The notes beneath the pieces were generated by a model. That model worked only from the letters and a program-made list of their open reading frames with translations, was not told the origin of the DNA and searched no databases. From Candidatus Saccharimonadota bacterium (GTDB lineage Bacteria; Patescibacteriota; Saccharimonadia; Saccharimonadales; Saccharimonadaceae), in the NCBI GenBank assembly GCA_012270305.1, contig JAAXIO010000050.1, positions 9,078 to 33,077 of the forward strand: a DNA stretch of 24,000 nucleotides. Reading direction: 5' to 3'. Of the stretch, positions 2,542-20,113 are shown piece after piece. The position numbers were made by a program, and so were the translations under genes. Position 1 is the stretch's first letter. Each line of letters opens with the position of its first letter.

Positions 2542-3582
2542 CTAGTCTACTGCTTCAGCTCGTGAAGCGGCTATTGAACTTACTACCGATAAGCTTATGA
2601 TAATCAATCCGGCAACACCAGCAATAATTTCAGGAATATCGAAGAATATGCCAGTAAGTAACACCGTGGCTAATACACCGATTGTGTAGTGCGCTCCATG
2701 CTCTAAGTATCTATAGGCATGTAGTACCTTATGCTCTACCATAAAAATGGTCAGGCTTCGTACCCACAAGGCCCCTATCCCAAGTCCAATGGCAATGAGT
2801 ACTACGTCTTTTGTAACGGCAAATGCGCCGATGACGCCGTCAAAACTAAAACTGGCATCGAGTACTTCTAAGTATAGAAATGCCATAAAGCCTGCCATGC
2901 CAGTTTTCAACACCGCATCACCGGCTTTTTGCTCCTGTGACTTAGCGAATAACTCTGCGAGGCCATGTATTAGTACGTATGTGATAATACCAACCAGTCC
3001 TGCAATAAATGTTTCTTGCGGGTCATGATTGGCCGGCAATAGTGTAAGTACAACGAGAATCATTAGGCTTGTAGCTGTATATAGCCACCATCGGCTCATA
3101 TTCTGTAATGGTTTTTCAATAATGTTAATCCAATGAATTTTTCGTTTCGCATCAAAAAAGAAATGCAGACACAACATAAGAAGAAACATTCCACCAAATG
3201 CAGCGATTGATACGTGGGCTTCGTTTAGCTCCGCAGCGTATAAGTTTGGGTTGTTCAGTGCCAGATCGACAACCGCCCCCATCGGTAGCCCTGCGGTGAC
3301 GGCTACTATGACAATCGGGAATACGAGGCGCATACCAACGACAGCAATTAGTATGCCTATAGTAATAAAAATTTTTCGCCAGAACTCGCTTACACCAGAT
3401 AGTACTTTGGCATTAATAATAGCGTTTTCAAAGCTAAACGTGATTTCTACTAAAATAAGCACGGCGGCGACAAAAAGCGCTTCAGGCCCTAAGAAACCGC
3501 CAACACCCGCTAGGCTGAGAATGGTAATGAGTGCGCTAATGAAAAATATACGAACAGGATGTTTTTTTGGTGTTCTAGACAT
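2542..3582 (-). CDS. Polytopic integral membrane protein, DUF475/TerC-like
   Basis: 346 aa and very hydrophobic. It has paired motifs EITFSFENAIINAKVL and LDASFSFDGVIGAFAVT, which I recall as typical of DUF475. Confidence 0.6.
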   Translation of the reverse strand: MSRTPKKHPVRIFFISALITILSLAGVGGFLGPEALFVAAVLILVEITFSFENAIINAKVLSGVSEFWRKIFITIGILIAVVGMRLVFPIVIVAVTAGLPMGAVVDLALNNPNLYAAELNEAHVSIAAFGGMFLLMLCLHFFFDAKRKIHWINIIEKPLQNMSRWWLYTATSLMILVVLTLLPANHDPQETFIAGLVGIITYVLIHGLAELFAKSQEQKAGDAVLKTGMAGFMAFLYLEVLDASFSFDGVIGAFAVTKDVVLIAIGLGIGALWVRSLTIFMVEHKVLHAYRYLEHGAHYTIGVLATVLLTGIFFDIPEIIAGVAGLIIISLSVVSSIAASRAEAVD

Positions 3583-3746: not shown

Positions 3747-5945
3747 ATGCGTTCGTACAAACTAGTCGTAGTATCAAATCGACTACCCGTAAGTGTCTCA
3801 AAACGTGATGGCGAGTTGGTGTTTGAAGCTAGCTCAGGTGGCCTAGCTACAGCAATGTCATCACTTGATCAACCTGAAAGAATCTGGGTTGGCTGGCCTG
3901 GTATTGCCTCCGATGACTTAACCGCAGCGGACAAACGGCATATTACAACTGAATTAGCCAAACACGATTGCTATCCGGTCTATTTAACAAAAGAGCAGAT
4001 TGAGCTCTTTTATGAAGGCTACTCTAACGATACACTATGGCCACTGTTTCATTATTTTCAGTCACTCACTCGGCATAAAGACGAGTATTGGCAGGCCTAC
4101 GTATCTGTAAATAAATTATATAGCGCTGCGGTGCAGAAAGTTGCGTCGTCTACCAGTTCTGTTTGGGTGCATGATTACCAACTTATGCTTTTGCCAGGTA
4201 TGTTGAGAGCGGCAATCCCACAAAGCGCGATTGGATTCTTTCTGCATATACCCTTTCCGTCTTTTGAAATTTACCGTTTACTACCCCAGCGCAAAGAGCT
4301 GCTGGAAGGGTTGCTCGGTAGCGACTTAATTGGATTCCATATTTTTGACTATGCGAGGCATTTCCTATCAAGCACGCTTCGGTTGCTCGGAGTAAGTAAT
4401 CAACAGGGTATGTTGGAATATCAGGGGCGAACAATTAAAACCGACGCATACCCTATCGGTATAGACTACGAGAAATTCAAGCACACACTGAGCAACCCTG
4501 AGACAAAAGATGCAATGAGTTCTCTATCTCAGCATTATAAGGGAATGAAGCTGATTCTATCGGTTGACCGGCTAGATTATACAAAAGGAATTATAGAACG
4601 ACTTGATGCGTTCAAATGTTTTCTTGATACCTACCCTAAGTGGCGCGGTAAAGTAAAGCTTATTATGGTGGCGGTGCCATCGCGAACTGATGTTGGCACA
4701 TATCAGCAGCTGCGCGATCGTATTGAACAAGCCGTGAGTCGAATTAATGGGGAGTTTGGAACGGTAGACTGGACTCCAATTTCGTATCAATTTCAAAATC
4801 GCCCATTTGCTGAAGTTGTTGCGCTATATGCAAGCGCAGATGTTGCATTAGTTACTCCTATACGCGACGGTATGAACTTAGTAGCGAAAGAATACATTGC
4901 GTCGAAGCAAAACCGACCTGGCGTATTGCTACTCAGCGAAATGACTGGTGCTATTGATGAGCTACCGGAAGCACTGAGTATTAACCCGCATAACACAAGG
5001 TCTGTTGCTGAATCGATGAATGAGGCGCTTACAATGAATAAGCGCGAGCAGCAACGACGCATGAGAGATATGCAGCGCCGACTTAAATCATATACGGTGC
5101 AAACTTGGGGCCGTGAGTTCATGGGCGACCTTGAAGCAACGGCACATAGCCGCGGTAAACATTATCGTAAACACATGAAGGGCGAACACAGAAATGAGGT
5201 TCTAGATGCATATGCAAAAGCGACTTCTCGATTAATCATCCTTGATTACGACGGAACGCTAAAAGACTTTGTTGCAAGCCCGCGTGCGTTGTTAGCAAAG
5301 CCGTCATTAAAACTTCGTAGGCTTATTAAGAGGTTAGTAGATGATGAGCGCAATCATGTAGCAATCGTTAGTGGACGCCCTAAAAAAGCACTTGATAAAT
5401 GGTTTAAGGGCATCGATGTCACGCTCATTGCAGAACACGGCGCTTGGTCGAAATACGACGGCAGATGGTCGCGTGTTGAGAGTGGCTTTCCGTCGACTAA
5501 GAAAAAGCTAAAGCCTATTTTAGAAAAATATGTTTCTAGAACGGCCGGAGCCGAAATCGAAGAAAAAGACTACTCGTTAGTATGGCACTATCGTAACGTC
5601 ACGCCAGAGCTTGCCTACGTACGAGCCGGTGAATTAAAAAGAGAATTAATTCATGCAATTGACGACGATGAGATTGGTGTATATACCGGTGATAAGATTA
5701 TCGAGGTGAAACCAGTAGAAATAAGTAAAGGTGCCGCCGCAAGTGAGCTTGATGCAATTTACGAGCCAGACTTTACTCTGGTAGCTGGTGACGATTACAC
5801 TGATGAGGATATGTTTAGGGAGCTCGCACACCAAGCTGTTACTGTTAAGGTTGGACCGGGGCATACTCGTGCGCGGTATCGATTGAACACCGTTGCTGAG
5901 ATGAATCAGTTACTCGAAGAGTTATCGAGACAGAAGAATAATTAA
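3747..5945 (+). CDS. otsAB: Bifunctional trehalose-6-phosphate synthase (GT20, OtsA-like) fused to trehalose-6-phosphate phosphatase (HAD, OtsB-like)
   Basis: N-terminal motifs: VVSNRLP, GGLATAM, WVGWPG, FYEGYSNDTLWPLFHYF, VWVHDYQLMLLP, LHIPFPSFEIYRLLP, DLIGFH, LSVDRLDYTKGI, PIRDGMNLVAKEY. The C-terminal ~250 aa carry LDYDGTL, SGR and GDDxTDEDMF HAD motifs. Confidence 0.9.
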   Translation: MRSYKLVVVSNRLPVSVSKRDGELVFEASSGGLATAMSSLDQPERIWVGWPGIASDDLTAADKRHITTELAKHDCYPVYLTKEQIELFYEGYSNDTLWPLFHYFQSLTRHKDEYWQAYVSVNKLYSAAVQKVASSTSSVWVHDYQLMLLPGMLRAAIPQSAIGFFLHIPFPSFEIYRLLPQRKELLEGLLGSDLIGFHIFDYARHFLSSTLRLLGVSNQQGMLEYQGRTIKTDAYPIGIDYEKFKHTLSNPETKDAMSSLSQHYKGMKLILSVDRLDYTKGIIERLDAFKCFLDTYPKWRGKVKLIMVAVPSRTDVGTYQQLRDRIEQAVSRINGEFGTVDWTPISYQFQNRPFAEVVALYASADVALVTPIRDGMNLVAKEYIASKQNRPGVLLLSEMTGAIDELPEALSINPHNTRSVAESMNEALTMNKREQQRRMRDMQRRLKSYTVQTWGREFMGDLEATAHSRGKHYRKHMKGEHRNEVLDAYAKATSRLIILDYDGTLKDFVASPRALLAKPSLKLRRLIKRLVDDERNHVAIVSGRPKKALDKWFKGIDVTLIAEHGAWSKYDGRWSRVESGFPSTKKKLKPILEKYVSRTAGAEIEEKDYSLVWHYRNVTPELAYVRAGELKRELIHAIDDDEIGVYTGDKIIEVKPVEISKGAAASELDAIYEPDFTLVAGDDYTDEDMFRELAHQAVTVKVGPGHTRARYRLNTVAEMNQLLEELSRQKNN

Positions 5946-10028: not shown

Positions 10029-10037
10029 ATTATAGCA
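10029..10037 (-). promoter_or_regulatory. Extended -10 box TGcTATAAT, 6 nt upstream of ATG 10022 (leaderless-type)
   Basis: Minus strand reads aaTGcTATAATtaccctATG. Confidence 0.5.
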
Positions 10038-12215: not shown

Positions 12216-12563
12216 TCAACTTTTTTTGATTGCTTGTTTTTTGTATAGGGTTTCGGATACAGTGCGACGGTCACGGCTATCGTGAATTGCATATACATCT
12301 ATTATGGTAAGAAATAAAATAAGGACTGTTATTGTGTAGGCGATCATTTCTTCGGCTGTTTTTGTTAAAAAGCTTTCGTTTTCAACGGTAATAGATACGA
12401 TGTTGTACCAAGTTGGGAAAAACTCAATCTTCTGAATGTGTCCGGCGTGTACGAGTAAATGAAATAACTCGTGTGCTACAAGACTCATCAATACTCCAAA
12501 AATTGTATACCAAATACGTATATCAATCAGATACTGAATAAACCTATGAGCATGCGCAACCAT
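12216..12563 (-). CDS. Small membrane protein with an HExxH motif (possible zincin-like, DUF3267-like)
   Basis: 115 aa with two or three hydrophobic segments and HELFHLLVH at the end of the first. Confidence 0.5.
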   Translation of the reverse strand: MVAHAHRFIQYLIDIRIWYTIFGVLMSLVAHELFHLLVHAGHIQKIEFFPTWYNIVSITVENESFLTKTAEEMIAYTITVLILFLTIIDVYAIHDSRDRRTVSETLYKKQAIKKS

Positions 12564-12569
12564 GAATGG

Positions 12570-12578
12570 ATAGTAACA
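12570..12578 (-). promoter_or_regulatory. Extended -10 box TGtTACTAT, 6 nt upstream of ATG 12563 (leaderless-type)
   Basis: Minus strand reads ttttTGtTACTATccattcATG. It overlaps the U-run of the upstream terminator. Confidence 0.35.
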
Positions 12579-12603
12579 AAAAAAGACTCACTGGGTAAGT
12601 CTT
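12576..12603 (-). terminator. Weak rho-independent terminator closing the ribozyme-containing transcript
   Basis: Minus strand reads AAGACU-uacccagug-AGUCUU-UUUUU, a 6-bp stem, 9-nt loop and U-run. Confidence 0.45.
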
Positions 12604-12665
12604 AATATCTCGATATGGCGGGGGCTCAAGGATGATTACCGAACCTGGTGTGGTGTAATATAGTT

Positions 12666-12720
12666 TTCGCTTTTCGTCCTTTCGGACTCATCAGCATGAA
12701 TACACATTCATGTAAGCGAA
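12666..12720 (-). ncRNA. Type III hammerhead self-cleaving ribozyme (complete core and three helices)
   Basis: Minus strand reads UUCGCUU-A|CAUGAAU-GUGU-AUUCAUG-CUGAUGA-GUCC-GAAA-GGAC-GAA-AAGCGAA. Stem III is 7 bp and open; the cleavage triplet UUA obeys NUH. Stem I is a 7-bp hairpin and stem II is 4 bp (G10.1-C11.1) with a GAAA loop. All invariant core nucleotides (C3-A9, G12-A14, A15.1-U16.1) are present. Confidence 0.88.
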
Positions 12721-12722
12721 TA

Positions 12723-12735
12723 TGACAAGCAGACA
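12723..12735. repeat. Left copy of a perfect 13-bp inverted repeat (TGACAAGCAGACA)
   Basis: It is the exact reverse complement of 13465-13477 and ends 2 nt from the hammerhead. Confidence 0.75.
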
Positions 12736-12823
12736 TGGAGTTAAGGAAAACATCACGGGGATCGTGAACCTAGGTTGTAACCCATATCCACTTGCCACAT
12801 TCGCCGTTCTGTACGAGACGACG

Positions 12824-13375
12824 TCAGTCGTCAGCCAGACCCACTTCGTTGGGGCCAGCACTGCGCGGCTGCGGTTCCCTCCGGTGCGGAGACTCACCGA
12901 TGAACGAGCTCTCGCTCTCCATCACGCCGCCCGGCTTGGTTATCTCGTCCTGACACAGCGCCACGATCCAGCGCAGCATGGTGCCAGCGATGGCCTCATC
13001 GAAGACTGCCTGAACACCGCTGAAAGCGACGATCAGTCCGTTCTCGATGACGGAGCCACCCCACTTGGTCATGCCGGGCCGGTAGAGGTGCGGAGCGTCC
13101 TGCTGAACCTTGCGGCTTGACAGTCCGGTCTCCCAGCTCACCTTCGCCTTCTCGACGGCGATGCGCTCATACTTCTCCTTGTCGGGGTGGTTCGGGTCGG
13201 CATCGGCGATGAAGATCATGTCGAACTCGCTACCCGGGTAGGTGTGCGGGAAGGCTACGACGATGGTGCCAGCGAACTTGTTGGTGACACCGTCCTCGTG
13301 AGCGGCATCAGCAGTGACGGAGACGATGTCCCACGCCTTCTTGCAGATCTTGGTGGTCAATCCGGTATAGGCCAT
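12824..13375 (-). CDS. GC-rich foreign-looking ORF (183 aa) with a possible GlcG/DUF336-like fold; start reassigned to ATG 13375
   Basis: SD AGGAAGAG lies 7 nt upstream of ATG 13375. The segments YERIAVEKAKVSWETGLSS and WGGSVIENGLIVAFSGVQAVFDEAIAG resemble the GlcG pattern (..KA.TA.. / GG.P...G..iGAiGVSG...De.iA). The C-terminal ~35 aa look disordered. Confidence 0.65.
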   Translation of the reverse strand: MAYTGLTTKICKKAWDIVSVTADAAHEDGVTNKFAGTIVVAFPHTYPGSEFDMIFIADADPNHPDKEKYERIAVEKAKVSWETGLSSRKVQQDAPHLYRPGMTKWGGSVIENGLIVAFSGVQAVFDEAIAGTMLRWIVALCQDEITKPGGVMESESSFIGESPHRREPQPRSAGPNEVGLADD

Positions 13376-13404
13376 GAGGCTACTCTTCCTAGTACTCAAC
13401 TGCA

Positions 13405-13457
13405 TAGCAGCGAGATGAAATGTTCCGCTTTGTGCCGAGCACTTAATCTCACTGCTA
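13405..13457 (-). promoter_or_regulatory. Stem-loop in the 5' leader of the GC-rich ORF
   Basis: UAGCAGUGAGAU pairs with AUCUCGCUGCUA over 12 contiguous pairs, one of them U.G. On the opposite strand that position would be an A.C mismatch. The stem encloses 29 nt containing the hairpin GUGC-ucg-GCAC. Confidence 0.4.
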
Positions 13458-13464
13458 ATTAGTT

Positions 13465-13477
13465 TGTCTGCTTGTCA
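13465..13477. repeat. Right copy of the perfect 13-bp inverted repeat (TGTCTGCTTGTCA)
   Basis: It is the exact reverse complement of 12723-12735. On the minus strand it reads uUGACAAGCAGACA, which contains TTGACA. Confidence 0.75.
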
Positions 13478-13524
13478 AAGTGCTTCGGAAACGAAGAATA
13501 CTCCCGCTTCAACGAAACAGGAGT

Positions 13525-13533
13525 ATTATAGCA
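13525..13533 (-). promoter_or_regulatory. Extended -10 box TGcTATAAT, 22 nt downstream of the tRNA-Trp 3' end
   Basis: Minus strand reads tttaTGcTATAATa. This is the same 14-mer as the rplA promoter. Confidence 0.45.
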
Positions 13534-13554
13534 TAAAATATGTAAATTGTCTAC

Positions 13555-13631
13555 TGGCAGGAGTGGAGGGACTCGAACCCCCGACACCCGGTTTTGGAGA
13601 CCGGTGCTCTAGCCACCTGAGCTACACTCCT
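13555..13631 (-). tRNA. tRNA-Trp (anticodon CCA), CCA-3' encoded
   Basis: Reverse complement: AGGAGTG-TA-GCTC-AGGTGGCTA-GAGC-A-CCGGT-CTCCAAA-ACCGG-GTGTC-GGGGG-TTCGAGT-CCCTC-CACTCCT-G-CCA. This folds as a cloverleaf with a TTCGAGT T-loop. Confidence 0.95.
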
Positions 13632-13668
13632 ATACTCGATTGATTGTACTAAATTACAGATGAAAAGG

Positions 13669-14622
13669 CTACTTATTTTGTTGAATACGAACAGCACGGC
13701 GGAATTTACGCTCTGTATCTGGGTCGGCGTAGCGAACAATTGGCTCTGCCGCAAGTAACCGATCTTTTTTGAGTAATTTCGCATTATCTTTCTCTAGGGT
13801 ACTCACAAAGTAGCGCTCAATTAGCCATTCCCTACCGGGTACAGTTTTTCCTTGCACGGTCATCATCCACAAATCATCCGACCACTGAATGGTATCTACA
13901 ATTCTCAGTTTGCCTGCGAGTGTCATAGGCCCTGTTGGTAATTTAGCAATCGATTGCCGAATGAGCTTTTCACCCAGCTCTTTATTATTTACGAGCACAT
14001 CGACAGCCATTGTTCGTACGCCATTTGGTGTTACCTGAACGGCATCGATTTTTTGATTATGTATCCAAATTATTTCACCACTCAGTGAGCGAAGTTTCGT
14101 GGAGCGAAGTGTCAATCGCTCCACCACCCCAGTAACATCAAGAAATGGCTCCACCTTAATATAATCACCTACCGTAAACCAGCGCTCAGCAATGATAGTT
14201 GCGCCCGCAGTGATGTCTCGAAGTAGTGGCCCCACGGTTTGTCCGGCAATTACAATAAATATTGCACTGGCACCAATCGCTGCCGCCCCACTACTTCTAA
14301 TTGCAGCGCTACCCTCGGGGCTCAAGATACGCCATGCTGCATATGCTACAACCGCTACTATCACTACGCGTACCGCAGCTACAATCACCCCTAGGTATGT
14401 TTCAACCTGTCTCAGTCGAACTGCTTTTATTGCGTCCGACTCATTATCTGAACGCACCGCTACCTTTTGAGCTATAAAGATAATAAATCGAGCTACATAC
14501 TTACTTAGCCAGTAGCTCACAGCAATGGCCCCGATAAGAATAAGTAATGATCGGTATGGGTTGGCCTGCGTAAAAATATCGCTCAGCTCACGGCTGAGCA
14601 TAGGAAGAAAGTCATTTGTCAT
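13669..14622 (-). CDS. Small-conductance mechanosensitive channel (MscS family)
   Basis: It has three N-terminal TMs, then GQTVGPLLRDITAGATIIAERWFTVGDYIKV..GVVERLTLRSTKLRS..G..IWIHN, the MscS pore/beta-domain signature. Confidence 0.85.
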   Translation of the reverse strand: MTNDFLPMLSRELSDIFTQANPYRSLLILIGAIAVSYWLSKYVARFIIFIAQKVAVRSDNESDAIKAVRLRQVETYLGVIVAAVRVVIVAVVAYAAWRILSPEGSAAIRSSGAAAIGASAIFIVIAGQTVGPLLRDITAGATIIAERWFTVGDYIKVEPFLDVTGVVERLTLRSTKLRSLSGEIIWIHNQKIDAVQVTPNGVRTMAVDVLVNNKELGEKLIRQSIAKLPTGPMTLAGKLRIVDTIQWSDDLWMMTVQGKTVPGREWLIERYFVSTLEKDNAKLLKKDRLLAAEPIVRYADPDTERKFRRAVRIQQNK

Positions 14623-20104: not shown

Positions 20105-20113
20105 ATTATAGCA
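20105..20113 (-). promoter_or_regulatory. Extended -10 box TGcTATAAT for rpmG
   Basis: Minus strand reads aataTGcTATAATgataac, about 40 nt upstream of ATG 20063. Confidence 0.45.

Follow-up and report, generated by a model that had tools for sequence, protein, structure and literature searches.

Hammerhead ribozymes with canonical cores have been described in bacteria and prophages, where they lie in intergenic regions beside small accessory genes (Perreault et al. 2011, PMC3088659). Their authors proposed that such hammerheads process transcripts into single-gene messenger RNAs (mRNAs). The role of most bacterial hammerheads is unclear. The window analysed here is a stretch of 24,000 nucleotides from a Candidatus Saccharimonadota bacterium (GenBank assembly GCA_012270305.1, contig JAAXIO010000050.1, positions 9,078 to 33,077). 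It carries a type III hammerhead at the end of a conserved single-gene unit of roughly 890 bp, which consists in order of a promoter, a 5' hairpin, a 5' arm, a leader, a Shine-Dalgarno site, an open reading frame (ORF), a 3' untranslated region (UTR), a 3' arm and the hammerhead. In contrast to the hammerheads described by Perreault et al., this cassette has a single ribozyme for its gene, confined to the 3' end, together with a promoter of its own, and the ribozyme appears to be coupled to a covarying helix between the 5' and 3' UTRs and to a competing local hairpin. Its hosts are genomes of the Saccharibacteria type rather than prophages, with no phage or viral matches. On balance, the locus seems to be one instance of an autonomous expression cassette that spreads by horizontal transfer among genomes of the Saccharibacteria type (Patescibacteria) and whose ribozyme would make a context-independent 3' end.

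A preliminary description of the locus held that nothing similar had been described, which was too strong, given that hammerheads flanking single bacterial genes have been published and that the 5' UTR of sister cassettes is a catalogued RNA motif, RAGATH-10. What is new is the covarying 5'-3' helix adjoining the ribozyme, the competing anti-arm in the 3' UTR and the full cassette architecture, as well as its occurrence in genomes of this type as a mobile unit that carries a foreign, GC-rich gene. No paper was found that ties hammerheads to Saccharibacteria, TM7, the candidate phyla radiation (CPR) or Patescibacteria. The cassette would represent a mobile expression module in the Patescibacteria/CPR, which have tiny genomes and little known gene regulation, and the cassette family provides a concrete and falsifiable model in which 3'-end formation is coupled to a long-range helix and to refolding after cleavage.

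Two further systems offer useful comparisons. In synthetic insulators of the RiboJ type, the hammerhead cut makes an mRNA end independent of its neighbours, and an adjacent hairpin protects the new end. These insulators are engineered and act at the 5' end, whereas the cassette is natural, has its ribozyme at the 3' end and appears tied to a long-range helix. Hammerheads of viroids and satellite RNAs form or fail to form according to which of the mutually exclusive structures is adopted, and refolding after the cut locks the product. Those RNAs are replicating circles, whereas the cassette RNA is a DNA-encoded mRNA whose putative activating partner lies about 740 nt upstream.

The strongest evidence for a discrete cassette is its recurrence. 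Relatives were collected from genome contigs, metagenome contigs and exact-protein look-ups, giving about 60 loci, the named records of which are mostly metagenome-assembled genomes of Candidatus Saccharibacteria or Saccharimonadales; the 3' arm and hammerhead were located in them by descriptor search, by BLAST and with a covariance model built for the purpose. The preliminary description had made its account depend on finding the parts together elsewhere. Besides the window, at least 17 distinct loci do have a 3' arm and a type III hammerhead downstream of the ORF and on its strand. The closest cassettes occupy unrelated genomic contexts. That of locus L064, with a protein 94% identical to the window's, sits after an oxidoreductase gene; L065 shares 90% DNA identity with the window over a stretch bounded exactly by the 5' arm and the hammerhead end; and in L066 the cassette has a ribosome hibernation factor gene on one side and serS on the other. 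Because L064 pairs the closest ORF to the window's with differing 5' and 3' UTRs, cassettes appear to recombine module by module. The identical ordered set of parts recurs elsewhere with covariation and, as judged from these comparisons, is therefore far beyond chance. Each part that had been listed for the window was found in its place on the minus strand, the strand of all window features described below. The earlier view of a single cassette of about 1 kb holds for the stretch from promoter through hammerhead, which is the recurrent unit; the tRNA-Trp gene and the terminator-like hairpin that it also included are neighbours.

The hammerhead of the window (12720-12666) was identified by its match to Rfam model RF00008, by covariation and by its fold. 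It has three stems, with stem III open and stems I and II capped, and the type III core is canonical throughout (CUGAUGA...GAAA, U16.1-A15.1, A17), as are the core-adjacent pairs. Cleavage is predicted after A12713 (UUCGCUUA, followed by C), between positions 12713 and 12712. The hammerhead fold is the minimum free energy (MFE) structure, with z = -3.96, and the window scores 96.4 bits against the purpose-built covariance model of 3' arm plus hammerhead. Among 22 distinct sequences, compensatory changes are found in 14 of the 18 pairs, and 96.7% of the alignment cells are paired, compared to 33-45% in slid controls. The ribozyme is predicted to be catalytically active.

The second conserved structure joins the two UTRs. 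The 5' arm UUGACAAGCAGACA (13478-13465) can form a 13-bp pairing with the 3' arm UGUCUGCUUGUCA (12735-12723), which ends 2 nt 5' of stem III. The perfect 13-nt inverted repeat that underlies this pairing (13477-13465 and 12735-12723) was reached in just 1.3% of Markov-1 simulations of the 1.6-kb region. When 17 cassettes are aligned, both sides have changed in 8 of the 13 pairs and 96.8% of the helix cells are paired, compared to 28-42% when the partner is slid, and none of 500 shuffles reaches the observed values. Natural cassette variants already act like compensatory mutants, with ..GTAG.. in the 5' arm facing ..CTAC.. in the 3' arm in L013, TTGACATGTAGACA facing TGTCTACATGTCA in L027, TTGATAAGTAGAAA facing TTTCTACTTATCA in L028, TTAACAAGTAGGCA facing TGCCTGCTTGTTA in L039, and TTGACAAGTATTGAG facing CTCAATACTTGTCGA in L002. 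The spacing from the 3' arm to stem III is constant, at 1-3 nt in every cassette, both arms lie inside the unit delimited by the conserved promoter and ribozyme, and the orientation of the ORF relative to promoter and hammerhead is uniform across about 20 loci and never inverted. For these reasons, the inverted repeat is best read as an RNA helix and not as a DNA recombination site.

It is improbable that the 13-bp repeats act on DNA instead, whether as recombination sites for an ON/OFF switch by inversion or as terminal repeats bounding a small transposon that holds the ORF. The arms are strongly conserved in sequence besides being complementary, the homology between the window and L065 starts exactly at the 5' arm, and the cassettes of L020, L023 and L024 lie within a further pair of inverted repeats, about 90-130 nt long, all of which would suit a role in DNA. 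The constant orientation of the ORF speaks against it, as does the lack of a recombinase or transposase within or beside the 13-bp repeats, where the neighbouring genes are unrelated. The promoter and the ribozyme lie outside the repeats and yet travel with them. Among single-transition mismatches in the arms, sense-strand G.U exceeds A.C by 4 to 2, and the fixed 2-nt gap to stem III is sensible only in RNA. The locus has the defining features of neither an invertible DNA switch nor a transposon bounded by terminal inverted repeats.

Read as an RNA helix, the paired arms are in competition with a local structure. The 3' UTR of the window contains an anti-arm, GGCGAAUGUGGCAAGUGGAUAUGGG (12805-12781), a wobble-rich local partner that pairs through many G.U with both the 3' arm and the 5' strand of hammerhead stem III; folding places a small hairpin (12767-12753) at the tip of this 3'-UTR fold. 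When the 3' region of the window is folded alone, the local hairpin (-61.7 kcal/mol) and a shortened hairpin plus hammerhead (-60.0 kcal/mol) are nearly isoenergetic. In thermodynamic models that leave out the ORF and join the UTRs by a neutral linker, the MFE structure of the window precursor is the panhandle with a complete hammerhead, and that of the cleaved product is the local 3' hairpin (-98.5 versus -96.3 kcal/mol), in which pairing reaches to within 3 nt of the new 3' end. Gating models of the same kind, likewise thermodynamic and without the ORF, place stem III in the MFE structure of 3 of 15 cassettes when the 3' region is folded alone, of 13 when the arms are forced to pair and of 2 when the 5' arm is blocked. 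The arms are paired in the unconstrained MFE structure of 9 of the 15.

These models suggest the following sequence of events. The RNA would start at the cassette's own extended -10 promoter, hairpin first, and the 13-nt segment of the 5' UTR would pair with the 13-nt segment that lies 2 nt 5' of the hammerhead, at the end of the 3' UTR. This long-range helix would draw the 3' arm off the anti-arm, which would otherwise also sequester the 5' strand of stem III, such that the ribozyme would fold preferentially on RNAs bearing the cassette's own 5' UTR. The hammerhead cut after A12713 would give a defined mRNA 3' end with a 2',3'-cyclic phosphate, independent of downstream sequence. After the cut, the product would either keep the panhandle or refold its 3' terminus onto the anti-arm as a long terminal hairpin, and in both cases the two mRNA ends would end up buried in structure, presumably stabilising the mRNA. 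Ribozyme-mediated 3'-end formation with a panhandle between the inverted repeats was one of four hypotheses put forward at the outset, and it is the one that comparative and folding evidence favours.

The position of the ribozyme is consistent with this proposal. Hammerhead-less relatives in low-GC hosts have a terminator-like hairpin and a T-run 30-80 nt past the stop codon, at the equivalent position, and therefore the ribozyme occupies the site expected of a 3'-end signal. The hammerhead-less members with such a hairpin are L006, L010, L011, L026, L042 and L044.

A more far-reaching version of the proposal is possible, although doubtful. The helix between the 5' and 3' UTRs may be a natural allosteric activator, such that the hammerhead folds only once its own 5' arm has captured the 3' arm. 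Only transcripts from the cassette promoter would then be matured, end-protected and insulated from context, and the AT-rich frame would serve as a plug-and-play adaptor for GC-rich genes from high-GC donors such as actinobacterial hosts. The adaptor part of this version is prompted by L028, in which a like frame surrounds unrelated GC-rich ORFs. If gating of this sort is true, it would be a natural RNA device of interest to synthetic biology.

Several observations weigh against 3'-end formation by a panhandle-coupled ribozyme. The window hammerhead scores 40.3 bits against RF00008 (E = 6.7e-7 in 1.5 kb), which is under the gathering threshold of 48.5 bits, and those of related cassettes score 25.9-41 bits; the low scores arise because short loops cost bits, and with loops so short a tertiary contact within the hammerhead is putative only. 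The ribozyme also seems dispensable at least sometimes, given that cores have decayed in L065 (2608-2677, A15.1G) and in L022 (3057-3125, U4C), and that L030 (3003-3037) and L032 (2400/3272) retain both arms and have lost the hammerhead. Several cassettes, including that of the window, have a terminator 3' of the hammerhead, and their transcripts could therefore end without the ribozyme. The two competing folds are just 0.5-7.5 kcal/mol apart in the clade of the window, and when the full 806-nt product is folded with its ORF, the local hairpin beats the panhandle. Finally, the arms are strongly conserved in sequence too, and might still bind a protein or act at the level of DNA.

The 5' UTRs of related cassettes add a further structure to this architecture. 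In the window, a leader hairpin with a 12-bp stem (13457-13405) is predicted by folding between the 5' arm and the Shine-Dalgarno sequence AGGAAGAG, read from the sequence at 13390-13383, 7 nt 5' of the ATG. Sister cassettes carry RAGATH-10, an Rfam motif (RF03147), in the interval that separates the 5' arm from the start codon, and the window's leader hairpin holds the place of both the leader hairpin and RAGATH-10 in these relatives. The name RAGATH stands for RNAs associated with genes associated with twister and hammerhead. RAGATH-10 is said to go back to work by Weinberg et al. from 2017, in the main text of which RAGATH is not mentioned, and no function for it was found recorded in the literature consulted. 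Scores against its model, the gathering threshold of which is 41.2 bits, are 52.6 bits for L064, 52.2 for L022, 47.0 for L003, 37.5 for L004, 34.0 for L039, 32.3 for L028 and 28.6 for L029. By contrast, the simpler leader of the window gives no match to the model, at E<=10 across positions 12300-13800. The cassette family thereby places an orphan motif within a defined mRNA architecture.

In L064 (3880-3994), the leader hairpin is formed by 3880-3896 with 3912-3928, and RAGATH-10 spans 3914-3994. The leader hairpin and helix P1 of RAGATH-10 share a strand, which is 3' in the former and 5' in the latter, and the other strand of P1 overlaps the Shine-Dalgarno site. This overlap looks like a riboswitch-like alternative fold that would act as a translational switch.

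The possibility of such a switch bears on a serious rival to 3'-end formation, in which the hammerhead is a negative or regulated element. As in glmS, the cut would commit the mRNA to decay, here by removing the downstream terminator hairpin, and the pairing of 5' and 3' UTRs and the RAGATH-10/leader switch would tune the mRNA that survives. The terminators past the hammerhead in the window, L002 and L013, which leave the ribozyme unneeded for a 3' end, fit such a role, as do the mutually exclusive folds at both UTRs and the overlap of P1 with leader hairpin and Shine-Dalgarno site in L064. The 3' end predicted after the cut, however, is paired to within 3 nt, which implies protection and not exposure. 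The coding fragment would also retain its 5' triphosphate and 5' hairpin, whereas in glmS it is the coding part that receives the 5'-OH. A decay trigger or other regulatory role of this kind is considered unlikely, and formation of a protected 3' end is preferred.

At the 5' end of the unit, the cassette promoter (13553-13525) begins 2 nt past the 3' end of tRNA-Trp. It is of the sigma-70 type, close to consensus, and consists of a -35 box TAGACA, a 17-nt spacer and an extended -10 box TGcTATAAT; 11 of 12 consensus positions match and the TG is present. The layout TTGACA-17-TGCTATAAT is found upstream of 20 related cassettes, in which the 5' hairpin sets in 7-9 nt past the -10 box, close to where transcription would presumably start. 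The outer stem of this hairpin shows compensatory changes in 5 of its 6 pairs among 15 related cassettes. Folding identifies a short form of the conserved hairpin in the window, CTTCGTTTCCGAAG (CUUCG-UUUC-CGAAG), at 13496-13483. A TTGACA within the 5' arm was considered as a second promoter and rejected, given that no cassette has a correctly spaced -10 box for it.

The sequence TGCTATAAT occurs four times in the window, compared to 0.38 expected, and the three copies besides that of the cassette are upstream of host genes. It is likely the consensus promoter of the host, and since it also serves host genes, the regulatory frame of the cassette is host-like and the ORF is not. The extended -10 boxes of the host genes are at 2502-2510, 10029-10037 and 20105-20113.

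The window copy has an additional 14-bp hairpin (13527-13497), which overlaps the -10 box, is followed by CTTCGTTTCC and is absent from the other cassettes. This hairpin may insulate the cassette from tRNA-Trp read-through by terminating or processing such RNA.

The cargo of the cassette is an ORF of 183 amino acids (13375-12824, with ATG at 13375 and the stop codon at 12826-12824). Its protein has 89 relatives in the protein database, which align from a common MxxGL start and share 16 invariant residues, and this pattern of conservation marks the ORF as a real gene. Pfam assigns the window protein to no family, not even PF03928 (HbpS-like/DUF336), which 20 of 34 relatives match weakly (best E 4.6e-8). 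An AlphaFold (AF2) model of the window protein, with a predicted local distance difference test (pLDDT) score of 89.9, has the alpha/beta fold of solved DUF336/HbpS-like members. The top 12 matches to this model in a Foldseek search of the PDB are all of the DUF336 type, with probability 1.0 and a template modelling (TM) score of about 0.6; they include 2a2l, 4nkp, 3fpv, 6bws, 9jth, 4clc and 5cx7, and the matched proteins include ORFY, HbpS, EfgA, NahX, Ybr137w and PduO-C. The protein is therefore a divergent one of DUF336/HbpS/GlcG-like fold. Relative to the DUF336/HbpS/GlcG/EfgA/PduO-C superfamily, the fold matches and the match to the hidden Markov model is weak, and the cassette branch has invariant motifs of its own (KWGG, SGVQ, FDE and C..E) as well as a disordered C-terminal tail.

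The composition of the ORF sets it apart from its surroundings. Its GC content is 61.8%, compared to 44.8% in the rest of the window, and its GC content at third codon positions (GC3) is 0.81, compared to 0.35-0.48 in ten host genes, such that its codon usage is foreign to the host. The cassette is a GC-rich foreign gene inside AT-rich regulatory sequence of the host type. In every low-GC host, the GC content of the ORF exceeds that of its flanks by 10-18 points, whereas distant homologues (33-40% identity) in high-GC contigs match their own flanks in GC content. This difference suggests that the gene was captured from high-GC bacteria and then spread among Saccharibacteria. Across the cassette ORFs (window, L001-L066), GC3 is near 0.8 and GC is 58-65%, in genomes of 40-50% GC. 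This composition is kept, with no amelioration, even at 50-60% protein divergence; candidate reasons for the lasting high GC3 are repeated transfer, RNA structure and a codon effect.

The cassette gene has been overlooked by automatic gene callers. The public gene calls of the window's genome (L068-L070, 2102-2842) miss the ORF and report two antisense ORFs, of 91 and 132 amino acids, within the GC-rich segment instead. As a consequence, the best database match to the window protein is just 94% identical. The genome itself is represented in samples SRR27540950, ERZ23495583 and ERZ27298225.

A gene with foreign composition in unrelated contexts points to movement between genomes. Comparison to a cassette-free locus, L072, was made possible by an 83%-identical orthologue of a neighbouring protein. 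The L072 backbone is 91.5% identical to the window over 2.8 kb and has neither the cassette nor the tRNA; its homology begins at window position 12610 and runs downwards, terminator included. No empty site was found among identical strains, given that all contigs with an identical neighbouring protein carry the cassette. We infer, rather than observe, the mechanism of movement. In the clade of L020, L023 and L024, the whole cassette is flanked by imperfect inverted repeats of about 90-130 nt, giving a unit of about 1.05 kb that resembles a miniature inverted-repeat transposable element. In L024, where these repeats are at 2211-2300 and 3166-3255, the two copies of 90 nt match at 79%, and the match can be extended to about 130 nt. 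Outside this clade, the cassettes showed no mobility machinery.

A different view of the cassette frame is provided by L028 (778-4706), in which an array of like frames, each with a promoter, a 5' hairpin, a 5' arm and a 3' arm, with or without a hammerhead, surrounds unrelated ORFs. The first frame contains an orphan ORF of 144 amino acids (942-1376) and a good hammerhead at 1501-1553; the second contains a DUF336-like gene with an in-frame stop, and its hammerhead has a weakened stem II; and the third contains a membrane ORF of 114 amino acids (4250-4594), with both arms and without a hammerhead. The GC3 of this cargo is 0.56-0.77, compared to 0.29-0.34 in host genes. By these two extra examples only, both from L028, the frame looks like a general adaptor.

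The size of the unit and its ribozyme also invite the idea that it is, or derives from, a unit-length or circular RNA processed by the ribozyme. Such an RNA could be viroid-like, Obelisk-like or retrozyme-like, or it could be a circle closed by RtcB with a 5' end set by the tRNA. A size of about 1 kb, a type III hammerhead and complementary ends suit this idea, and many homologues are found on contigs of 900-1050 nt. These contigs, however, have differing flanks and no terminal overlap, on which grounds circular elements of about 1 kb were rejected, and the flanking inverted repeats found in the one clade probably explain their lengths. There is a single hammerhead per unit and there are no direct repeats, a conserved promoter precedes the transcribed unit, conservation beside the cassette does not extend to the tRNA, the loci lie within contigs of up to 518 kb, and the protein has an ordinary DUF336 fold. 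Of the features taken to define viroid-like, Obelisk or retrozyme-type elements, namely a circular or tandem unit-length RNA, ribozymes in terminal direct repeats and the lack of a chromosomal promoter, none was found, and an origin in circular RNA is very improbable. The proposal of a tRNA-defined 5' end followed by circularisation fails along with it, since cassettes have a conserved promoter and 5'-terminal hairpin of their own and the contigs of about 1 kb are not circular. The related proposal of a remnant of a mobile element or RNA replicon is left with a weak meaning only, namely transfer of the cassette from one genome to another, and nothing points to an RNA replicon.

Other vehicles were also considered and set aside. 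A viral scan for arm plus hammerhead gave one chance match inside a coding region, and none of 50,697 phage records matches the ORF. Plasmid matches are of 29-41% only, on actinobacterial and Burkholderia megaplasmids.

The sequences on either side of the recurrent unit are not part of it. The tRNA-Trp(CCA) gene (13631-13555), identified by ARAGORN and scoring 64.7 bits against the Rfam tRNA model, has a counterpart near the cassette in just one of the 18 genome loci, L014, of which L060 is the metagenome duplicate; in L014 a methyltransferase-like gene separates the two. On the other side, a spacer (12665-12611) joins the cassette to the backbone. It is unconserved in other cassettes and not significantly tRNA-like, and a duplicated att site was rejected, given that the alignment of the spacer to the 3' end of tRNA-Trp scores 16 against a shuffle mean of 14.7 (p = 0.34). 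Beyond it, the intrinsic-terminator-like hairpin with its T-run (12603-12576) is assigned to the host backbone because it is common to the cassette-free L072, the homology of which starts at 12610. Such a hairpin is absent or different after other cassettes and thus is not conserved with the unit.

These flanks decide the fate of a last hypothesis, that the functional product is the 5'-OH fragment downstream of the cut, an RNA of about 137 nt that comprises ribozyme core, spacer and terminator. It would be a stable, structured RNA with a terminator hairpin at its end. The sequence 3' of the hammerhead, however, shows no conservation between cassettes and differs in every context, the fold of the 137-nt fragment is no better than shuffled (z = -1.47), and the terminator at its end is that of the backbone. 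A function for this fragment, which had also been proposed in the preliminary description, is hardly credible.

Two minor observations concern the 3' UTR and the tRNA flank. A second class of 3' UTR (L005, L007, L013, L017 and L027) has GTGGCARGYAGAGAGTAGTTTGGG past the stop codon as well as an extra arm-like segment, CTCTCATTGCCAC, and therefore several mutually exclusive 3'-arm pairings are possible in these cassettes. In the lineage of the window, the tRNA-Trp flank may be an insertion hot spot. At 1284-1310 of L072, a fragment resembling the 3' end of tRNA-Trp (GAAGTCCCTCCACTCAGGCCA) lies beside a different inserted gene, which encodes a protein of 216 amino acids that belongs to no family.

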